Part shown: positions 68 through 63,800 of the stretch, one piece after another
Position numbering within the stretch: position 1 is the stretch's first letter
How the letters are laid out: each line of letters opens with the position of its first letter
Assembly: GCA_965153455.1 (NCBI GenBank)
Contig: OZ234493.1
Location: 21,070,213 to 21,134,212, forward strand
Length of the DNA stretch: 64,000 nucleotides
Direction: 5' to 3'
DNA from: Sphagnum compactum
Taxonomy: Eukaryota
Program-made: the position numbers and the translations under genes
Notes under the pieces: model-generated
What the model was told of the DNA's origin: nothing
Databases searched by the model: none
Seen by the model: only the letters and a program-made list of their open reading frames with translations

Positions 68-3000
68 ATGAGCTCTTCATATAATTTTGGATCTGCTCTT
101 GGTGAAAGCTCCCTTGGCTCTTTGTCAGCTTTCGGAGGTCCTGCAGGAGGAGGAGGAGGAGGAGGAGGAGGAGGTGCAGCTGCTCTTTCCAGCCCTTTCC
201 CACAGTCTGCTTCTTCAGGTGGGTTTTGTGGAAAAGCATTTTCCTTTCTTCCTCCTTTCTCCTTTGCAAGATTTCTTTGCAAACGCATGAACTGTACAAA
301 GAGATAGGACGAAAAGAAACTCATGGGTACAGCAAGGGAGAAAGACAACAGCACCCAACAGCACCCTCAAAGAAGGATGGAAACTACACACAACATCGGA
401 AACATATCAACAGCAGCTGGATTGGAGAAAGTCTCTTGTCCTGTGGTGCATGAAATCTCGTCCTTGTGTTGCATTTTGTTTTGTTTCTACAGGTTTTGGG
501 TCTGGTTTTGGAGTGTACAATGGATCAGTGGCTGCATTGCCATCATCAACAACAGGGATTTCTTCATCTCCTCAATACACCTTTCAATTACCTGGTACTG
601 GAATGAAAGACTGCTTAATCCGGTCTCCTTCGTATAACAACTATTCTCACAAGGTGACAAAGTCAAAAAATACACCAAGGCAAGTGTCTTTTGATTCAAA
701 AAGTATTCAGAGTGGGGGACTGGCGAGGTTTCATCAAGCTCAGAGTGACAGCAAAGACAGTCCAAAAGAAGCGTTGTCTGAAACAACTTCCTCATCCTCC
801 GAGAATCACTACCCATCAGCTGGCAACGAGAAGTTGTATGAGGCGTACAATGATCTTCACAGTCTTGCTCAGGATTTTCACAAGCCCTTTGATGCGCCTG
901 CGATTGTGGTTGTTGGACATCAGACCGATGGCAAGAGTGCCTTAATTGAAGCTCTCATGGGCTTTCAGTTCAATCATGTTGGAGGTGGAACCAAAACCCG
1001 TCGCCCCATCACACTGCATATGAAGTACAATGCTTTGTGCAGTGAGCCCCGATGCTTTTTGATTACAGAGGATATGCCTCCAATAGAGGAAGAGAAGCGC
1101 CTTGAAGACCTGCAGGTTCTCTTTCCTTTCTCAATCCCTGCATTAGTAAACTGTATGCACATCAGATTTTTTGCTTGCACACTCTTATTGGATGCAGGGT
1201 TTTGCTCTCTGATTGTGTTGGGGTTTACTTCTTACAGGCTTATATTCAAGCTGAGAATATGCGCCTTGAACATGAAGCATGCCAGTTTTGGGCCAAGGAA
1301 ATCATTCTGAAGATTGAATACAAGTACTGTCCAAATCTGACCATCATTGACACCCCAGGTCTCATTGCAGCAGCTCCGGGACAAAACAATCATGCCCTTC
1401 AGGTCCTATGCTGAAACTTGCATAAGCATTTAACAGCCCAATGCAATGTTGTGATGCGTGCAATTCTTCATTGGCATCCACAGTTGTCATTGTCTTGTTT
1501 AGCGAACTGGTTCTGTTGTGGGTGAACAGATGCAAGGGCGGGCAGTAGAGGCATTGGTGCGCACCAAGATGCAGCATAAGGAGTTCATTATCCTCTGCCT
1601 GGAAGATTGCAGTGACTGGAGCAATGCAACCACTCGGCGCATTGTGATGCAGGTCCAGTTTTCACCCTTTCTGCCATTCCACTTCACAAGTTCTGAAGTC
1701 TGGTACTTCCTTTTGTCATGAAAGTCTACATTGAGAAAACTCTTGGGGTTTTTTCTTTTTTTGGGGGGTGTTTTACAGGTTGACCCAGAACTGTCAAGAA
1801 CAGTGATTGTTTCCACCAAGTTGGACACGAGGATCCCTCAGTTTGCAAGCCGTGCTGATGTTGAACTCTTTCTAAGGCCTCCCAAACGCTTGTTAGATAG
1901 AAACATTCTGGGTGGTGCTCCCTTTTTCACCTCAGTCCCATCAGGACGGGTGGGCAGTAACCGGGATTCTGTTTATCAATCAAATGATAATTTCCGTGAG
2001 GTATGTATATATATACACTTCTTTTTTTTCCCAGTTAGTAACTTTTATTAACAAATTGTGTCCATTTGTTTTCTTTTGTGATTGTTGGTTTGTGTGCTCC
2101 ACACCAGCAGTTTCTTCATAACTTATCTCAGTGTGATGCATTTTTCAGACTGTAGCATTGAGAGAGAAGTTGGATGTTGCATCCTTGGAAGAGAAGCTGG
2201 ACCGGCCATTGTCTAATGAAGAATGCTCACGGGTTGGAGTTAGTCAATTGCGCTGGTTTCTTGAACAGCTACTACGACGCCGGTTAGTCTTGTCAATCTC
2301 TAACTATGTACCCATCATTGGTAGCATTACAATCTGTTGAGGTCAATGTCCCATCAAGGTGTGGGCTCTCAAGCAATCGCTAAGTGTAGTGGAACTCTGC
2401 CTGGACTTACTTATATTGCATGTTCACAAGTGAAATGTCATTCCTGTCTTCTAGTACATGAACAGGCAGTAGTCATTGAGGGAATTGTTACACAATGAAT
2501 TGCAGATACATGGATAGTGTACCAGCAATTGTCCCACTGTTGGACAGGGAGTATCGCAATGCCTCTATCAGGCTGCATCAGACAATTCAGGAGCTGAGGT
2601 GTGTACCCTGTCTTTTTGGAAGGTCTTTTTTAGCCCAATGTCACAGGGTTACTCGGCATGGGTGAGAGTTGAAAACTCCTTGTTAGTTCTGATTGTGCAA
2701 GATTTAACTGTGTAAAACAGAAAGGGCAGCAGGTTATCACAGAATGTTGAGGTTATTGCACACCCAAATCTGACATTGATGTGGAATTTCCAGTGACTTG
2801 GATGCAGCAAAGTTGAAAGAGAAGGGTCGAATTTTTCGTGATTCTTTCTTGTCCAAGGTTTGTTCCTTGCTATAAGCTAACTTGTGACTGGAATTTTGAG
2901 GCATTGGATTCTGTAGAGGAGTAATGTGGGTTCACCCAACTTTTGCATTACTGAGACTGTTTTCCCTTCTTCATAAACTGCTCCTGTTGTTGGACCTTTC

Positions 3001-10119: not shown

Positions 10120-11274
<1,155 letters not shown>

Positions 11275-15900: not shown

Positions 15901-17449
15901 ATTTATTAGAAAGAACTTCAAGGATATAAATTTATATTTACCTTTCATATTTTTGGCCCATTTCCAACCAACATTTCCATTGGATTAGACTCTTTACATT
16001 TTGATCATTCAACATACCCATTCTATCAACTTAACCATATAAAACCTTTAACCATTTTTTGATGCCTTCTTTTTTGAAACATTTTTATGGTAAATGTTTA
16101 TTATAATTTGATCGCCTTCTATTAATATAACATGGAATCACATAATTTATCATAATCAAAACTATTCTTCCTTTTCTCAAAGTTATCACCTTATTAACTC
16201 TGATAATTGTTTTAACATTGTCCAATACGTTGAACCCAATTTGTTTCTATACATAAATCACTTTCAAATTCAACCACATTACCATAGTACTTTGGCCAAT
16301 TCGATAATCCTTTGTTGAAAATTTAATTAATTTTCAAGTTTTCAATTTGACACCTTTGTTTTAATTTTTTTATTTTCAACAAAAATTTTGAATATTTTTT
16401 TGCATTTTGAGAATATCAAAAATTTACCCAAGTTTAATCTCTTTTTTTGGTCCTTTTTTGTTTGATTTTTTTATTGGTAGTTCAATTTTTTTGTTGCAGA
16501 TTTGTTGGTTTAACGTTCATGGCATATCTTTAGGATTCAAGATTGATTATTCAAGAACTCCTTTACTTAAGAGCATTCTTGGTACCTACCTTTTCTTAGT
16601 GAAAGAGTTGACAATAGAGAGTTTGCACTAAAGGCACTTTGCTATTATTCTATTTGGGTGTGAATGAAAATACTAGAGAAAAAATGGAAATAGATCATTT
16701 GTAGAATAATCTTGCTTCGTCTATTTTGTAAAGTTCCTAGTTTGCATTTAAGACTTTAATGTGTATCTACCTATTAAGGAGCATGTGAATGAAAAAAATT
16801 GTTAGCTTATTTTTTGTTTAACATATTTTAGCTCAAGAGTTTTTTTATGTTGAGGAGCAAAAATATTGAAAAAACTAAATTGGTTATTATGGTAATTTGG
16901 TATATATAAATACCTACAACAAAAGCAACATAAAACATCAACAAGGTTATTCAAGTTCGTCACACAAAATGAACACCAAAGTTTTTTAAAACATGAAGGT
17001 GAATTGTTGGAAAAAGTTGCACAAAAGAGAAATATCAAGTGTATAGTGCAGAAACATCTAATTGGTCGCCCTATGAAATTCAAAACAACTCTACAAGCAA
17101 ACCAAATGATCACACAATAGTCAAATGAAGAACAAACAAGAAATCAATCACATGTGCACAAGCATTGGACATATGTCAACTGGTTGCAACAAGATTTGTG
17201 GCCACCCAAAGTGGTAGCAATCAAGAAATACCACGACAACAAAATTGACACCTTCCATCTCTTGAAAATTGCTTATAGGAAACCATGATGTCCTAATCCT
17301 TATGAAAAAACTGGATAAACCAACCTTTATGATTGGTTTATAGATAAAGGAAAAATTAAAGCCAAGTATGTCCATGTAGCTGCATACAAGTTGAAACCAG
17401 GAAGAAAAATTTACCAATACTTGAAAACCATCCAATATTGAGAGATTCA

Positions 17450-18497
17450 ATTGTAGCCATGTTGTAAAAGATGAAGGAGGCAAGCTAGCCCCTAACAACT
17501 TCCACAATCCAACCTATAATTTGTGAAATGATTGAATCATTGGCCCTTGATGTGCTCTGTGACAACAAAGATAATGGGTTTAAAGTTATTCAAGTATGGA
17601 TTCATCAATTCATGAAACATTACATGAATTGGATTTTTAGGGTTTACAATAGCTAACAAACTTTCATTAGATTGGGAAGAACAAGGATAGTTCATGGCTT
17701 ACCATATTACTTGCCTAGTTAAGGCTTACAACATTCCACCTTCACTTGTTGTCAATAGTGATAAGATCAACATACATTTGGTACCTACATCACGAAAATG
17801 CACATGGGAAAGTAGGGGCTCCAAACACATTCATGTGCTTGGCATAAAAGACAAAAGGCAAGTGACTATGGTAATATTTTCATTTGCAACATGACTGTTG
17901 TTGCCACTACAAGTGCTTTTACAGGCATTACGCCAAGAACATTGCTACCAAACAATCAAAGAAAATCAATGTGTGTGGCAAATGGGTGGGATCACTCACC
18001 TATAGTGAAAACCATTGGTGCGTTTTGTGGAGATTGTCATGGTGCCTTACTGCCAAGCTCGAATTGAATCATCTAGATTGCAAACAAATCAAATAATGAT
18101 TTGGTTGTTAGATTGCCCGAATGTACACAAAAGTTAAGAATTCTAGGGTTGGATAAAAGATAAACTTCCAAACATTTTGGTTATTTTTGTATCAGCAGAT
18201 TGTACCAATGTTTTACAACCAACTCATGTCATACTACAGTGCCCACTCAAGCATGCATTCAAAATGGAGTTCAACAACTAGACAAAATGGGTCATCGAGG
18301 AGCAAATTGAAAGTGGCAAAAAACCAAATGTTGATTTCAAAATGAGTAATTTAAAACCACGCATATGTGAGTGGTTACACAATGCGTGGAAAGAATTGAG
18401 AAACAAAGAAACAATCATCTTAAAAAGGTGGGAAAAAACAAGGCTTGTAAAAGCTTGGAGAAGTGATTTTCAACTTGCTACCACAGAAGCAAACACA
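17450..18497 (+). pseudogene. pogo/Tc1-mariner (DDE_1-like) transposase remnant
   Basis: Fragments YNIPPSLVVNSDKINIHLVP..TWESRGSKHIHVLGIKDKRQVT, WLLDCPNVH and IFVSADCTNVLQPTHVILQCPLKHAFK match the pogo-type DDD core layout; multiple stops and frameshifts. Confidence 0.75.
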
Positions 18498-18561
18498 GTT
18501 AACATAGCAATAGAGAAATAATTGTGTTTGCTTCTGTGGTAGCAAGTTGAAAATCACTTCT
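18459..18561. repeat. Perfect 39-bp inverted repeat with 25-nt spacer
   Basis: agaagtgattttcaacttgctaccacagaagcaaacaca (18459-18497) and its exact reverse complement (18523-18561). Confidence 0.95.
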
Positions 18562-20673
18562 AAACCCATGCAAATTCAACAACCTTGAAGGTGTTATTCT
18601 AGGACGAAGCATACATCATGAGTTGTTACTTTTATGGCCATTTCCTAAGCTTGGGCTCTTACTCTTCCAATTTTGAATAGGCATCAAGAAGAGCAAGGGA
18701 TGTTTATTATTATAGCCAAAATAATGAACCCTTGACAATGGGGTCTATTTCCAAATCTAACAAAGGTACCCAAGAAGGAATGTCTGCATTGAAAGAGATA
18801 AATGAACGCTCTTTGGTGCATGACTATTTGAAGCTTTCATGGTTTGTTGAGATTGTGTTAAAAGGCTCAATGTGTTTGATTCTTGCATTTGTTTTAGCCA
18901 TGATAATGATGTAGGTTTTGGACATTGATCTTGATAACTCCTTTCTACCCAATTAAAATATTGTTCATATCAACCTTGTTGTATATTATGTTGGGTCATG
19001 TTCAATTTTTAACAACAACAACAACAACATGCAACAACTTCTTATATGTTAGCAATAACTCTGATATAGAAGGCAACATAATTATGAATAATTTTATGCT
19101 ATGAAGCTTAAGATTTGGTGAGGGAGATTCAAGCTTTATGTCACTTTGGCAAGGACAACGACAAGATCAAGGTAGAAAAAATGAGATTCCATCGAACAAG
19201 GTGAGCATAGTTTAGCCCTTATCGATGAAACAACTAGTTGAAGTATTGTCAACTTCTCTAGGAGGGGGAGGCACCAAAGTTGCAAGTGGAGTACTTAATG
19301 TTGCATATACAAAAACACCATGACAACAAAAGTTCAGGAAAGTAAAAAAAAATAGTGCTAACAATAGTGTATAGCCTTGGATTTGCAATAAAACAATGAT
19401 GGGATTTTTGTATATTCTTTTGTTACTAGAGCATGGGTTGGTGTCGATAATCACACCACATTGCTTAGGAATGGTGAGTGCCTTGGCATTTAGCTTCGTG
19501 AGCATAATGCAAACAAACAAGGTTGGTTGATTATAAAAAATAAAGACTACTACAACAAGCGAGTGGAGGAGTGGTAGTTGGCTTTGTGATGTAAATATAA
19601 TATTTCTTTCTTGATTCCTACTTGAGTGAAATTGAGATGATCTCATGTAAAGTTGGACTTCTTGATACAACTTCATGCCATTGAAGATTAAAAAATTGTT
19701 TATTGGCTTACCATGATCGGGTTCATGTATTTTGTATTGTTTTTGCAGGTTTGACATTGGCTTTTACATCCACAAAAACACCCCCTACACTAACACCCCC
19801 AACCCCATTCTTAGTTGGTAGTTCATTAGCGTCATTGTCATCTTCAATTCTCTTGCCTCCTAGAGTTGCTTATCCCCCAAAAGCTACCTTACCACCACCA
19901 ACATCTCTTCCTCCTCCTCCTCCACTATTAGGAATATGTAGCATCAGTATTTACCGAAATATAAAATATAAAACAATTATAAAAGTCTTGAGTACAATTT
20001 TACCAAAGTTAGGCAATTAGTTTACCTAACCTAAGATGTCGTCCAACTGAAAAAAAGTAGGCACCTTACTGAAATTTGACAAGGAAATATTTGGTAAGAT
20101 CTTGTTGAATTTGGTTATCATTACTTTTGACTTGCTAAATGGTTGGGTCTGCCAATACGACATAGGTTCGAATTATCTAAAGGTTTGAAAAGGTAAGAAG
20201 AAGAATGAAGATATAAAGGGATACTCTTTTGGGGGGGACTTAGAACCAGATATTGTACTAAGATTTCATAATACACACATCAATATTATTGATTTTCTCT
20301 TATGTATTTTATCCATGCATGCTTCCATTTCTATTCTGTTTGTTGATCATAGAAAAAAACTTCATAATCTGTTTTTACGACTCAAGTATATGGTATTGTG
20401 TGTAATATGGTAGACAAGAACCCAACGGTGATGTAGAACTTAATTCCTACTAAAATCATCGCTAACAATTTGGTAAAAGACATTTGTTGAACAAATATGT
20501 TTTGGCTTGTTATGTGAATGTATAGTTTGATGCATTTATGTGTACTTTTGCTAGATTTATAGTTGGTAAAATGACTAATCAAAAACTATGAAATGACTTG
20601 AAATATCATATAGGATATGATATGGAAAATGATGTCCATCACTTTACATTTGATGTGTCTAATTTTGCCAATT

Positions 20674-23220
20674 GAACCTATTGGCGGGAACCCGGGTTCC
20701 CAAACGGGACCCGGGTCTTTCAAAAGATCTATATCTCCGCAACTAGTCATCAGAACCATCTCGTAATAGGTTCAATCGTCTTCTCTTATTCAATGAAGTC
20801 ATCTTGCGATCGGTCCAATTTGTATTTTCACTGTTTACGCCTTCCGGAAAAACGATAGGAGCGACGACTATCCAGGCACAGTGCCGGAGGCATTCTTCCG
20901 CGGGCGCCCGACCTTTGGCTTCTCCACCCCAATCGCCTTCTTAAAAGGCGCTACGCGCGTGCTCTTGCTACTAGATCGTGTGGCTGCCACGTCCTCATCT
21001 TCCGAAGAATCGGACAAACCCTCAGGAATAGAAGGGTAGTAGGAAAGTACTTCGGGAGGGATAGAAAAGTACTTCTTGGACAACGATTTGAGCTTCTTGT
21101 TGGTCAGCTGCTCCTTAAGCTCCACACGAGGGAGCTTGACCATGTCAACCGACGTGACGTCATCAATGGACTTGACGCCACTTCTAAACAAATCGAAAAG
21201 AATCGCTTGACGAACAGAATCAATATTCTCGAGAAGAAACATCGGAAACTGGACGGCCTCGTTGTCGGGCGTACTTACGAGATGGCGCATGCTAACAATG
21301 CCCTGGTCGATCTCAAAAAAATAGTTGCCAGTGTAGTTCGGTGGCATAGACTTGAAGTACTTCTTCAGAAAAGAGGTCCAATCGCCAAAGAAGGGTCGTC
21401 GCGATGACTGATGATCCAGGAATTCGGCAGAGACAGACTTAATGGCGTTGAGCTCAGATACAATCCTGCTGAGGGTGTAGAGGTTCTGGGCACGCATCTT
21501 GTTTCGACACCAGGCAACGACACGATCGACCTGGTTGTGAGAGTGGCAAGGGATAAGAAAAAGAAGAGCGACCTTGTCATAAAACAGGAGAGATAACAGC
21601 GCATAGAACATGAAGACCACCTTCGACTTATTTTGACCAACGCAGTTGTCGAGGATCAGCAGGAACATCTTAGGCGAACGGTCGGCACGTTCTTGACGAA
21701 GTCGAAGATGAAAGAGTAAACGAAGACTGCACAGGGCGTCAGCGCCTTTGCCTTGACCACGCTCATCGTAGATCAGAACATTATTGCGATTGGCGGTGAT
21801 GTCGGAGATGATGAAGTTCTGCATCATGAGATTGGAATTGAAGTAGTGAGCAGAAGGACGTTGATGGCCATAGAAAGGAAGCGGGAAGCTGCCGCCGAAA
21901 TCTTCAATCTGAATCTGGATCTCAGGGAAGGCGTCGTCGATAGGATCAGGAGGCGCATCATCAATGGTATCGGGAATAATCGCATTCGGGACAAGTTGCT
22001 GGGGTGCATTAGCTGCAATGTACTGCTTAACGAACCCCGACATGAACCGACGCTGATCAATAGCGGCCTAAAGGTGCATCCCCTTCTCCAGAACCAGATG
22101 TTCCCGCTCTTCAAGCGGGAGATCGTCACGAGCGAGTTGAATATCAATGCGAACACAAGAATCACAAACATCTTCTGCCGTCCTTGTCAGGCGAACACCA
22201 GGTTGGTGCAACTTGACGTACTGGGTCCATCAGGAAAAGCTCATCACTCGCCGCTCGAGAGACACCATTTTCTTTTCGTACCGCTTCCAAAGCTCCGTCC
22301 AGGTCAGCTTAGCCTCCATGACATATTGGCGAGGTCGTCGATGCGAACAGGGAAATCCATCCTCCAGCTCCCACATCTTGCAGTCCTCAATGAATGCAGT
22401 TAGATCGTCTGATGATAGAGCGTGATGTGGAACTTTCATAGGACGGCGAGTATGGCTTCCGTCCCACGTCCCGTCCTTATGAATCTTTCTCAATCGTGAC
22501 ACACGAGAACCACCAACACCAAGGAGGGCCTTAATCTCTCGATTCGAATAACCTTGCGCCATCAATCCCAGAATGACTCCTTCGCCCTGCTCCCTTTCCG
22601 CCTCGTCGTATCCCGTCTTCATCGCGTTCCACGTCTCTTTCAATGCGTTGAGACTCTCTTCTCCCATCTTCTTCACCACTCTCTCCAATGCGTTCGTCTT
22701 CCGATCCGTCTTCTTCTTGTTGATCTGCTGCACGCACTTATACGATCCACTGATGCCGCCATGTTTGCGCTTCTGGAGTAAGGATTCACCGGCGGTCAAA
22801 CTCGAGGTTGTTGTATCAGACAACGTGGGCGGCTTCTCGACTAGTGACGAAAATGCGAGTAGTTGATCACACCATCGGCCAATTATACTACAATTCTCCC
22901 AGATCTCAAGATAATCCAAGATTGTTGCCATGGCCTCCTGAATGTTGCCCTTGTTCTTCTCAATCGAGCTCAGGTCATTATTGTCAAATCCCCAACAGTG
23001 TATTTTCATTTTCAATTCAATCGAACATTCCTCCTGGCTCCGCTTAGACATTGCTTCTGTTGCTCCAGCGAGGTCTGGAGCTCCTGCCAGGCCAGTAATA
23101 GCCCCGTACGGCATCTGCCACGGGGCCCGAGTGCTATTTTAGGTACCCTCCAAAAAAAAAAAAAAATTGTCTTCTGACATTGAGTTTTTTGCGGGACCCC
23201 GGGTTCCCGCCAATAGGTTC
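20674..23220 (-). mobile_element. Full-length Sola-like (probably Sola1) cut-and-paste DNA transposon, 2547 bp
   Basis: TIR GAACCTATTGGCGGGAACCCGGG(T/G)TCCC (28 bp, 1 mismatch) at both ends; AATT on both flanks (20670-20673, 23221-23224), matching the AWWT target of Sola1; abrupt rise in GC content; internal DDD transposase. Confidence 0.88.
20835..23114 (-). pseudogene. Sola-type DDD transposase, ~759 codons, three in-frame stops
   Basis: ORFs 22230-23114 and 20868-22043 are in one frame; stops at 22230-32 (TGA), 22068-70 (TAG) and 20868-70 (TAG), next stop TAA at 20835-37. Motifs: HTH-like GYSNREIKALLGVGGSRVSRL, DVCDSC, IEDFGGSFPLP, YDERGQGKGADALCS, LILDNCVGQNK, FLIPCHSHNQVDR, AT-hook GRPRK. 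Confidence 0.85.
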
Positions 23221-24517
23221 AATTAAAGCAAGTTGTTTAGATTGATGGCTTGTTTTTCTTCCCATTTTTCACAACAACAAAACAAGAGGAGTCAAATTGG
23301 GTATCATGGTGATTGAAAGAAAATACCCAAGTTCAAACATTAAAACATGTGAACGTTGAAGTTCAAAAAGTAAACATTGAAAAGTTACCATGTAATTAAA
23401 CTAACCTCAACCAAGGAATCATGATTGTAGTGTTCATTAGGACCCTTCCTTCTTTTCATCCTATATTCAAGTTGTCAATACTTGAAACCTATGCAAATAT
23501 TTCATAGCAAATTCAAGGCATTCATCAAGATATACCCTTATACTATAAAACCTCCCAATTGTGCCATGTTTTCAACATAAACTGGGAGATTTCATGTGAA
23601 AGCATTCCAATGACAATACTTTATCAAATTCATCAACAACTTTTTGATAAAACATTTATCGATGAACACGCCATCATACTGAACCTCACTACCATCAAAT
23701 TTTTGCCATTCCTACCCATTGGGGCTCCTTGCTCTAGGCAACGATGCACTTTTTGCCATTATCACTGGAAATCCCCATTAAATTTTTTTTCATGCATTTC
23801 TTCTTGTTGACAAGAAGGAATATTTATATTTATTTTGGTTATTCAATAGGCAAAAGAGGACCTCTAGAGGTCCAAAAAGATCTATTTTTTTACAATATAG
23901 AGAATGAAATGTATCATAATATCAAAAAATGACAAGGAAAATTCCATTTCCAACAAGATAAGACTTACATCAACCACAATGTGGACAAAATATTATTATT
24001 GATATTTAATAATATTGTTGGATTATGATCATTGCCACGAGTTGCCCTTGTGGCTTTGAATGTGATGTAAATTAATGTGTTTATTTCATTGGATGGGTTG
24101 CAATCTAAAAAATTAAGCCCTAAATTATTACAAAAAAAATATGGGGATCTTTTTTGGGGGGAGAAAAAAAATTTAGTTTCCTTTGGAAGTGTGACAAATT
24201 TTTTTGAAAGGTTTCAAACTAAGATATGCACACACAAAAACCCAAAGAACAAATGAAACCTTGGAAAGCTAACCCAAAAAAAACACTAATGAATTTGTGT
24301 AGCTTAGACACGAATCATTGATCGTGCATTTTTTAAAATTTGAAATGCTAATTATAACCAATATTAAATAGGTATAGACAAAAAAAATCATATCAAATCA
24401 ACTTTTTCAACACTGCATGTTTATTTTTAAAATAATACTATATTAATCTTTCTCAAATTTATATTGAACAATGCATTGCACAATAAGGACATCTTTACAT
24501 TTAAGTTTGCAGTGATC

Positions 24518-24643
24518 ACAACAATTTTCCATTAAATTTTTTCTCCTAATGTCTATGCTCACAACAATTTTCCATTAAATTTGTTTTCCTAATGTCTATG
24601 CTCACAACAATTTTCCATTAAATTTGTTTTCCTAATGTCTATG
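24518..24643 (+). repeat. Tandem repeat, ~42-bp unit x3
   Basis: cacaacaattttccattaaattt.tt..cctaatgtctatg(ct) repeated three times. Confidence 0.9.
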
Positions 24644-25018: not shown

Positions 25019-25609
25019 ATATGCCCTATTTGTTTGTTTTTAAAATTAAAAATAATTCTTAAATTCTTAATATTATTTATTATTTTAAATTCCACCTCTT
25101 GCTTGTGCCACGTGCTAGTTTCAGCGAGTAGCACGTGCCTGTCGCACGGAGACAGGCTCCCCAGGTGCTGGCTGCGGGGGGGTAGGGTGGGGAAGGAGAG
25201 GGGCTTGTGTGCCATACCTCTGTGTGTTTGAAGAATGAGAACTTTGTGATCAGGTAACGAGATCACACGATTCCAGTTATGATGAATAGATTATCTTCCA
25301 AAGTATTTTTATGCGAAATTTGAGCGTTTGGATCGCGAATCCCATTTCTCTGGAGCATTTGAGGCTGCGAATTGGGCGGCAACACGTGGCTTTCGATCTC
25401 TCCAGTTTCGAGTTTTTCGAGGAAAGCGGGCGAGAGAGGGGGAAGAGAGAAGAGAGAAGCTCGCGGATCGAAAGATTTTGTCGCAGAATTGCAGAGCTGG
25501 ATCTAGAGAGACAAGAAGCTTTTTTTGTGAAGAATTCTTTGCAGCTCTTCTTGGGTGTTTGAGAAGAGGAGGAGGAGGAGGAGGAGGAGGAGAGAACGAG
25601 AACAAGAAG

Positions 25610-29436
<3,827 letters not shown>

Positions 29437-60811: not shown

Positions 60812-63800
60812 TATGATTGATGTTAGAAGAAGACTGGAAGCTCTTCCCGCATTTTTTTGATACCAAGAAGCACCCCCCTCCATGGCTGATGGCATTTTCT
60901 TTATGAAACCCTTTCACTGGGGTTTGATGCCCTAGTGCATAAATGTTAGCATTAGATTGCTGGAGTGCACAGAGGCACAATCGATGATGATGATGTGGAG
61001 AGAAAAACTCAACTGTGTTTGATTGAGTTCAGCTGGCTGCAACCGACATTGTATATGAAATGTGCCAATCTTTCAATCTTTTTTGGGAGCTTCAGAAATT
61101 TGACATGGGATCCTGATATCTTTGCATCCAATTTTGTGTGGGACCTTTCAGATTGCGGCTTTTTAAAAACCGGAAGCCAAATGTCACTCCTGAGTGGCAG
61201 CAAAGGCTTCCAGATTTTGTGAAACGATTGGAGGAGGCATTGTACAGGAGTGCAGCCACCAAGGTAAAATGCTGTCTTTGTTGTTGCTATCAGAAAAAGG
61301 CTGCAGTTTTCGAGGAGTGTAAAAAGCAGTCAACTTTTTTCATTGGGTGATCATGATTCTGTGATTGGGTATAAGGATTCAGTGCCCTGATTTTGGGTAG
61401 GTCACAAAGTCAGACATGTAAATTGTTTTCATTGTTGTTGGGTTTTACAGTAGGGGGTGTATGTAAGTTGTTTTTTTGTTGGATTTTATAGGAGGAGTAT
61501 GTGGATGCTTCAACACTGGAGCAGCGGCTGCAAATAGTGACCAAGCGCTTGGTGCGAAAGCCACAGCAAGCATCTCAGGTGGTATCATCCTCAGCAGTGG
61601 GCAATATGATTCCAACCCCTGGGACGACACCTTCCAACATGATGCCAACGCCAGGCACTGGGAGCAACATGATGTCAATGCCTGGGAACAGCAGCAGCAT
61701 GACACTGACGCCAGGGAGCACAGGAAACTTGATGCTTCCAGGGGGTGGTGGTGGTGGTGGAAGCTTAAGCAGCATGATGTCTGTGCCTGGGAATGGAAAC
61801 AACAGCTTCATGAATCCTATGTCTCATGGAAGTGGAACAATGATGCCAGCACCAGGGACCAACATAAGCAATATGATACCAACACCTGGACATGCCAGTA
61901 ACAACATGTTTGGTGGTGTATCTGGAAGCAACATGATGCCTACCCCAGGCTCTGCAGGAATGAATTCTTTGGGCTCTTCCCAGCAAGCAGCAATAGGTGG
62001 TGGCCTTCGCTTGTCACAGAACGGCCTTGTAGCATCCAGCATGGGAATGGGAGTCAGTAACCAAATGATTCCTACACCAGGTTTAACCTCGTCACAGGGG
62101 ATGAGCATTTCAGCTGCACCATCGTCAGCCGTTCTTCCTGACATGAGTGGGGTAACATCTGCACAATTGCAGCAATATGGGGGTGGTGGTGTCAATGATC
62201 ACTATCATGGGTTGAATGGACACTTAGGAGGGGGAAGTGGAGGAGGAGGAGGCATTAGCAGTAGTGTTCAGCGCAAGTCCACCTCATCCTCAATCGGATT
62301 GGTCAATGGAGGGAATAGTAATGAGTTGATGCTGCCCAATGGGCAGCACCTGATGAATGGGAACACTGTCTTACATAATCCTGCAAGCTATCCCAATGCA
62401 TCGCAGTACTCAAATGTACACCTCCAGCATCAGCAGCATCCGCAGCGTCTGACAACGCAACAACAGCGGCCCCCAAACCTTCGCATGCGTATGTTCTCTC
62501 CCTCCCTCCCTCCCTCCCTCCCTCAGGCTTCTTCTATAGGGCATGTGCACACAAATGCCACTCTTTGTCTTGCCGGTAGTGTCATCCACTGAACCATCTG
62601 TCATCACCCCCTGAAGTCATTGTTATTGTATTGCAGGGGATAGCTATGCCATGAATGCTGCAGACCTTGCAGGATCAGGGAGCTTGTTTTCTGCAGTGCA
62701 AGGACATGGACTAGCTGGAAACAACTTGGGTATGGAGTCAATGATTTCACCATCAATGAAGATGATTCCAGTGCAAGGATTTCCGTCTGCACAGCCAAGC
62801 TTGCAACAGACGAACCAGCTGCAGCAGCAGATACAACGCACAGGCCTTCACCAAAACGTGATGTACAATCCAAGGGGCCAACAACAGCCACAACAGCCAC
62901 AACAACAACCGCAACAGCAGCAGCGGCAAATACAGCAGCTTGCCAGATCTCAAGCAATTTATGAGTCCCAGCAGTCTTCAGGTCTTGCTGGTCCAAGACA
63001 ATCAGGGGTTAGTTTACTGAAACCAGTTCTCTTCATATCTGTATATGTCCTTGTCTTGCAGATACTTGCTGCAGAATGCTTGTGAAGGTCCAATTCAGCT
63101 GAAATTTACCTTCATGAATGCAGCATGAACAGGCTTTCCAACAATCCGTGTCACAGCACATGCAACAGCCAACACCAGGATTTCCACACCAGCAGCATCA
63201 AAATATGCAACAGCAGCGACAACAGTCTAGTCAACACCAGCAGCAACAGCAGCAACAGCAGCAACAGCAGGTGAGAGAAATGCCCATTGAGTGTTGGGTT
63301 TGTCTTCCTGCAGTTTCCTCAGCCATATAGCAATCCTCAGAGGCCTTGAAACTTTTCTTCTGTCTTTGAGATGCTAATTTGAACAAGAGTGACAGGGTGC
63401 ACAAGCTCAGAGGCAGCATCCAGCAGCATCCCAGCAACAGCCCACTCATCAGTCCAAGCCTGCTTCACAACAGCACCATCTTCTAATGCAGCAGCGGCAG
63501 TGGCAAGGCCAGCACAACCAGCAGCAGCATCAAGGCCCTCCTGGACAACTGCCATCACAGTCTCCATCCCAGAACCAACCACAGCAGCAAGCTGCTCAGG
63601 GGCTTCACTTGCAGCAAGTTGAGCAAACCACCACTGCCCAAGGGTCACTGCAAGAGCAGCAGCAACAACCAACACTGCAGGTCTCAGTCCAAAAGCAAGG
63701 CCAACAGCTACCAAAACAAGAAGAGGGTGTCAACAGTTCAGCTCTTTCTCCACCGATACAAAGTACAGTGCAACCAGGGAGCAGTGCAAATGGGAACTTG

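Follow-up and report, generated by a model that had tools for sequence, protein, structure and literature searches.

Is the transposon at positions 20674-23220 of this DNA a foreign, recently arrived and almost intact invader of a moss genome? A sequence-only reading of the window, by which we mean the whole stretch of 64,000 nucleotides analysed here, had suggested so. Our analysis indicates that the element is very probably a complete, full-length but dead copy of a low-copy family of Sola1 type, here called family A, in a Sphagnum-like moss.

Structure and insertion site of the element

The element is a cut-and-paste DNA transposon of 2,547 bp. Its features in the window are as follows:

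20670..20673, no strand: left copy of the TSD AATT
20674..20701, plus strand: 28-bp TIR at the end downstream of the transposase
20835..23114, minus strand: transposase frame, 759 codons from the ATG at 23114, without frameshift, with three premature stops
20847..20870, minus strand: C-terminal PIP-box-like motif (QxxLxxFF type)
20868-20870, minus strand: third premature stop, in the first codon of the PIP-box-like motif
21525..21527, minus strand: third catalytic aspartate, D509, in HSHNxxDR
21648..21650, minus strand: second catalytic aspartate, D468, in DNCVGQNK
21900..21902, minus strand: first catalytic aspartate, D384 (counted from the ATG at 23051), in EDFGG, on the first core strand
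22068..22070, minus strand: premature stop TAG, a C-to-T change in CHG context
22230..22232, minus strand: premature stop TGA, a C-to-T change in CG context
22473..22604, minus strand: predicted three-helix HTH-like DNA-binding region, residues 150-193, from the helices of the model
23193..23220, minus strand: 28-bp TIR at the end upstream of the transposase
23221..23224, no strand: right copy of the TSD AATT

The two TIRs (20674-20701 and 23193-23220) agree at 27 of 28 bases and AATT stands on both sides, which bears out the near-perfect 28-bp TIRs and AATT flanks claimed earlier. A 16-base palindrome lies within the repeat at 20674-20701, and a shorter word related to it stands immediately inward. 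Its core, GAACC(TA/AT)TGGCGGG, recurs in the sister families B and C described below and also in a distant element of another metagenome. An exact 20-base TIR was found five times in the genome (382 Mb, 702 contigs), each time at an end of family A, and a reversed TIR used as control pattern had no match in the 382 Mb; the repeat is therefore not a product of chance. As the shared core has only 16 exact matches in the genome, there is no large non-autonomous swarm (MITE expansion). Among metagenome loci, L098:97-2455 is a 2,359-bp element of another metagenome with the shared core, a near-matching 4-base duplication and a near-intact open frame of 598 residues that is distant on the tree.

Searching the genome at the DNA level returned seven matches. 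Four of them constitute family A, namely this copy, two full-length copies (96% and 95% identity) and a half copy (97%), and the other three are short, at 67-72%. The half copy (L004 / L043, G000:C17) lacks the 5' 1,152 bases, which were not found in the adjoining 8 kb; what is left of its frame runs without a stop over 467 codons and is entered from unrelated upstream DNA. No second copy was detected in the window by tblastn of the homologue set. In metagenomes, 31 of 80 loci belong to family A at 91-95% identity. The three two-ended copies of the genome are flanked by AATT, AAAT and AACT, respectively, and a matching TSD was present in six of seven distinct two-ended metagenome insertions. 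All nine matched TSDs of the family have the form ANNT and six of them the form AWWT.

Region 19700-24200 was compared with four public runs (X8 and X11 among them; runs X8-X20 contain 0.32-0.37 of the window words). An empty site with a single AATT in relatives had been proposed as a check on the insertion, and it is present in organisms B and C, both related species, on one contig each. These contigs join 20668 to 23220 and skip 2,551 bases, i.e. the element plus one 4-base copy. No such join occurred in two runs of organism A. Organisms B and C carry family A elsewhere, visible as loose ends at 20672-20673 and 23221, and the depth over the element is several-fold that over the flank, a depth that does not represent a copy number. 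We conclude that 20674-23220 is a real insertion of a mobile element. It occurred later than the species sampled, or is polymorphic. That an assembly chimera or a contaminant was placed in a moss scaffold has next to no probability: although none of the pieces from organism A among the longest listed spans the junctions of this copy, the 4-base duplication is precise, the empty site is exact in two other species, and copies are spread over four chromosome-scale contigs, with both ends and a separate TSD in three cases.

As to the neighbourhood, the window contains a dynamin-family exon (291-1310, plus strand) and a polyubiquitin gene with five repeats (10123-11274, minus strand). A DnaJ-like exon (~25290-25720, minus strand) and a low-complexity exon resembling the N-terminus of a histone acetyltransferase (61492-62592, plus strand) were tentatively recognized by eye. 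Three head-to-tail units of 43 bases, 93% alike, occupy 24513-24643. Heavily AT-decayed transposase remnants had also been described next to the element; the stretch 17300-18800 is stop-riddled and appears pogo/Tc1-like by eye, but it has no transposase match in Pfam, and the analysis does not confirm this description.

Transposase and predicted fold

The transposase frame ends at its natural stop, the TAA at 20835-20837, and includes DNCVGQNK and CHSHNQVD. The frameshift-free frame of ~759 codons with the motifs DNCxGQNK and (G/C)HSxxxxD was thus read correctly from the sequence. Use of the alternative start at ATG 23051, where the lamprey homologues start, gives 738 codons. D468 and D509 are invariant among ten aligned homologues, and D384 is an aspartate in 35 of 43 non-lamprey rows, the pattern being unmatched in the other eight. 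The strand with D384 spans residues 378-389 of the structure model. This predicted structure is of moderate confidence (mean pLDDT 61.6). Its best fold match among 48,161 solved chains was the catalytic domain of Mos1 (Z 8.7, rmsd 4.2, 166 aligned), followed by Metnase (Z 8.6) and then retroviral integrases, all in the range of Z 8.5-8.7; a Z of ~8.7 is middling. Foldseek returned no match at E<=0.001, with integrases and Mos1 in its top rows. In Pfam, the protein matched DUF7869 (PF25273) with an E of 5e-13, and the match to HTH_23 was weak (E 0.05, under the cut-off). According to the model, D384, D468 and D509 form a DDD triad in a predicted RNase H-like core, as is characteristic of the Sola superfamily.

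The C-terminal motif of QxxLxxFF type is presumably a PCNA-binding PIP box, and we regard PCNA binding of the transposase as putative. The motif was present in 12 of 27 non-lamprey tails of at least 40 residues, for which shuffles expect 0.2; the remaining rows of the 67 lacked such a tail or were lamprey. None of 12 lamprey proteins examined contained it. A fused longer protein with the N-terminal half was not found; one match among 1,874 candidates is weak evidence.

Assignment to Sola1

Sola elements are described, in PMC10741241, as having a DDD transposase, a 4-bp TSD, variable TIRs and mostly a size of 2-9 kb, with examples from moss. An AWWT target is the hallmark of Sola1, for which horizontal transfer has been reported among insects (PMC3845634), and Sola1 is listed for Physcomitrella and Capsicum in PMC9033089. 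The TSD of the present element measures 4 bp in all three own copies, in six of seven metagenome insertions and at the empty site, its 28-bp TIR and its 2,547 bp agree with the Sola description, and six AWWT sites among nine ANNT sites are in line with Sola1.

We further compared positions 5-30 and 57-124 of the Sola1 RNase H profile, taken from the supplement of PMC5751038, with the element by eye and unscored, the Sola1 profile being the only one used. Its segments gRgsneiasal, DncagqNk and flepgHs align with GKGADALCSL, DNCVGQNK and FLIPCHS. Judged in the same way, the D-to-H spacing is 35 here versus 36 in the profile and the D-to-P spacing is 8 in both. The context of the first aspartate differs, being fDlqk in this portion of the profile and EDFGG in the element, and on account of this replacement we consider the element a probable divergent sub-lineage. 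It may thus be filed as Sola1 by this comparison by eye with the Sola1 profile alone. The idea of a Sola1-type DDD transposon with an AWWT-like target is supported by the TSDs, the fold and the motifs that stand in register by eye. Tc1/mariner was considered as well and rejected: the TSDs are 4-base ANNT and do not follow the TA rule of that group (PMC10741241).

The superfamily to which this element adds a new member had been recorded from a moss before. Among the publications listed for Sola in combination with Sphagnum, lamprey, and moss or bryophyte, subscription papers and Repbase Reports aside, none describes this family. Likewise, the family does not appear among those listed, bioRxiv supplements aside, on lamprey-oomycete or bryophyte-oomycete transfer or on the label 'cleavage inducible'. 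A Sola alignment was not found in the searched part of the supplement of PMC3985635.

Sister families, decay and age

Of 42 rows obtained when the genome was searched at the protein level, four are family A, 15 show 47-57% identity and 23 show 29-35%. The 15 rows (L017-L031) represent family B (nine copies, 82-88% alike) and family C (four copies, 85-88%). Both have the TIR core of family A, and seven of their eight two-ended copies have matching ANNT TSDs. Some copies of B and C contain insertions. L032-L042 fall into four or more additional families in which decay is more advanced and similarity is confined to the surroundings of the second and third aspartate motifs (29-35%).

Eleven copies of family A yield a star tree with no starred branch. 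Measured against their majority, the ten full copies diverge by 2.0-5.1%, and the copy at 20674-23220, with 2.0%, is tied for the youngest. Premature stops occur in all ten full copies; none has an intact transposase frame, and the family is not an autonomous active element as it stands. Singletons in family A have a pN/pS of 0.87. Private C-to-T or G-to-A changes among the three own copies number 46 at ~338 CG sites, 47 at ~242 CHG sites and 29 at ~715 CHH sites. A CG/CHG pattern of this kind is expected of methylated, silenced plant repeats. The decay of family A is neutral and weighted to CG and CHG sites. In comparison to the majority of the ten copies, this copy carries three nonsense, 27 missense and 11 synonymous codons, and four of the 27 missense changes fall in columns that are at least 90% conserved. 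The earlier estimate that three to four substitutions might revive the transposase was too low in view of the three nonsense and 27 missense changes.

Compared with the window, the orthologous flanks in organisms B and C are about 5-9% divergent. Metagenome copies of family A differ by 5-9%, and because this is similar to the divergence of the flanks, the family predates or spans the related species. We infer that the arrival of family A predates the divergence of the related species sampled and was not recent.

The element had furthermore been called compositionally alien. Its GC content of 0.497 is indeed above that of the 2-kb flanks (0.34 and 0.33), but it is the same as in host exons: GC and GC3 are 0.46-0.51 and 0.47-0.61 in three coding stretches of the host within the window, compared to 0.50 and 0.58 for the element. 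Composition was therefore rejected as a sign of foreign origin. The CpG o/e of the element is 1.03, versus 0.41 for the window and 0.30-0.71 for the three host coding stretches. Since the older sister families, at a divergence of 12-18%, keep values of 0.92-1.07, a high CpG o/e does not date the arrival.

These data bear on the scenario in which a compositionally foreign, nearly intact element came from a fungus or oomycete in one very recent invasion. The CpG excess over window and host coding DNA, the place of this copy among the youngest and the frame without frameshift would agree with such an event. Still, organisms B and C and the moss metagenomes share family A at 91-95%, close to the divergence of the flanks, much older families have the same CpG values, and no near-identical non-plant sequence is among the 67 and 120 listed hits. 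We consider a recent single invasion highly improbable and largely refuted; what is fairly young is only this insertion, and the term recent invader does not apply to a family common to related species.

As a working model, the N-terminal helical region of the transposase would have served to bind the TIRs, and the enzyme would have paired the ends and cut them with its DDD site. It would then have joined them to A/T-rich ANNT targets, leaving a 4-base stagger from which repair produced the duplication. The C-terminal PIP-like motif may have tied the transposase to PCNA at sites of replication or repair. Finally, the copy would have been silenced by methylation and then decayed.

Relatives and origin of the lineage

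Most protein hits lack a host name. Where a host is named, in a set of 67 hits and in the best 120 of 151, it is Sphagnum jensenii, the liverwort Calypogeia, a lamprey, one of five Phytophthora species or the aphelid Amoeboaphelidium; the chrysophyte Pedospumella and additional lampreys came from cluster look-ups. No seed plant, dikaryan fungus or other animal is present among the named hits listed. Protein searches see mainly called genes, so that the absence of other named mosses is weak evidence. The element protein is 93-95% identical to Sphagnum jensenii proteins, which points to a Sphagnum-like moss as the probable host. Its sister P0003, which has no host name, shares 62%, and the nearest named non-plant proteins come from lamprey (58% over the searched region) and Phytophthora (~50%). 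Identities to non-plant proteins overall are 45-58%. The listed hits thus show what transfer predicts, namely that the closest relatives with a name are not plants and that the range is patchy, but these identities do not single out a fungal, oomycete or protist donor.

Two trees, of 48 and 47 selected rows, were calculated. P0003 joins family A (100/99 and 99/97), and lamprey proteins join families B and C (100/100 in both trees). Own families, P0003 and lamprey proteins share one clade with elements of Phytophthora (99/95 and 100/95), outside of which Calypogeia is placed. Within the larger clade, family A joins lamprey plus B and C in one tree (82/82) and forms an open fork in the other. 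The AU test rejects a single clade of own families and unnamed kin (p 1.3e-6) as well as a single bryophyte clade (p 1.7e-5), for groups that include unnamed rows, without named hosts, and that were picked after the trees were seen. Lamprey P0002 shares 52-56% with B and C over 550-640 residues and the identity of family A to B and C is 44-46%.

The mixed tree, the AU rejections and the closer relation of P0002 than of family A to B and C favour repeated cross-kingdom horizontal transfer, likely via a protist reservoir, over ancient paralogy with loss. The lineage would live mainly in water-borne protists (oomycetes, chrysophyte, aphelid) and would have entered peat mosses at least twice, and the liverwort and the lampreys separately, by horizontal transfer. 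Weighing against transfer, in our judgement, are the lack of any non-plant sequence closer than 58% and the poor record of dead transposons in called proteins. Vertical inheritance, in which old paralogous transposase lineages were kept in bryophytes and lost or decayed elsewhere under thin sampling, appears rather unlikely. It would accommodate the low identity to non-plant proteins, the Sola1 records from Physcomitrella and Capsicum (PMC9033089), the several Sola-like lineages of different ages in the genome and the existence of a liverwort homologue. On the other hand, the identity between B/C and lamprey exceeds that between A and B, which is hard to obtain by descent since the plant-animal split. 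The host range of the named hits listed and the rejection of a bryophyte clade by the AU test likewise speak against it.

The lamprey members (P0002, P0006, P0209-P0223) have long open frames; within each species, most of them share a single scaffold and bear locus numbers close to one another. Their first aspartate is replaced by E in 11 of 11 members of the Lampetra/Lethenteron cluster and by G in seven of seven related Petromyzon proteins; of three outlying lamprey proteins, one kept the D. This pattern suggests that the lamprey genes are a possibly domesticated cluster. In addition to repeated transfer, which we favour, we tentatively put forward a more specific history at somewhat less than even chances. 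In this reading, an undescribed sub-lineage with EDFGG, the shared TIR core and a PIP-like box may have repeatedly crossed kingdoms in wet habitats. It would reside in oomycetes, in a chrysophyte and in an aphelid, and would have colonized a liverwort once and peat mosses on two or more occasions. Lampreys might have received it from the source that also supplied the older moss families, and then lost the first aspartate in what are probably domesticated clustered genes.

Significance and comparison with known systems

Taken alone, the element is an ordinary dead transposon. Its value lies in tying DUF7869 proteins, some of which are labelled 'cleavage inducible' or uncharacterised, to a transposon with defined ends and target, and in providing a dated, species-specific insertion marker for peat mosses. 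A tree that mixes moss, lamprey and oomycete is notable against the rarity of kingdom-level transfers of DDE transposons, estimated at 0.4% of nodes in 10.1101/2021.09.26.461848. If the transfers and the lamprey domestication are true, they would amount to a testable plant-protist-vertebrate exchange and to a transposase-derived gene family in lampreys.

With Sola1, as outlined in the sources cited above, the element shares the DDD transposase, the 4-base TSD with AWWT preference, the TIRs and the size of 2-9 kb, whereas the EDFGG motif, the TIR core and the C-terminal PIP-like motif set it apart. Mos1 and retroviral integrases have the same RNase H-type core and, by inference, the same cut-and-join chemistry, but only 10-19% identity, and the target is 4-base ANNT here instead of TA. 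The closest named full-length non-moss relatives are lamprey proteins, for example XP_078732831.1 and XP_075914241.1, at 46% identity along 754 residues, a span in which the N-terminal region is included; the lamprey proteins group with families B and C of the moss genome. Phytophthora P0009, P0025 and P0108, which bear the label 'cleavage inducible protein', are homologues of the transposase. The DUF7869 domain is common to the element, lamprey P0002 and P0006 and Phytophthora P0108, and the Atlas neighbours are DUF7869 clusters. In Pfam, DUF7869 stands without assigned function, whereas here TIRs, TSDs and the empty site link this domain to a transposon.
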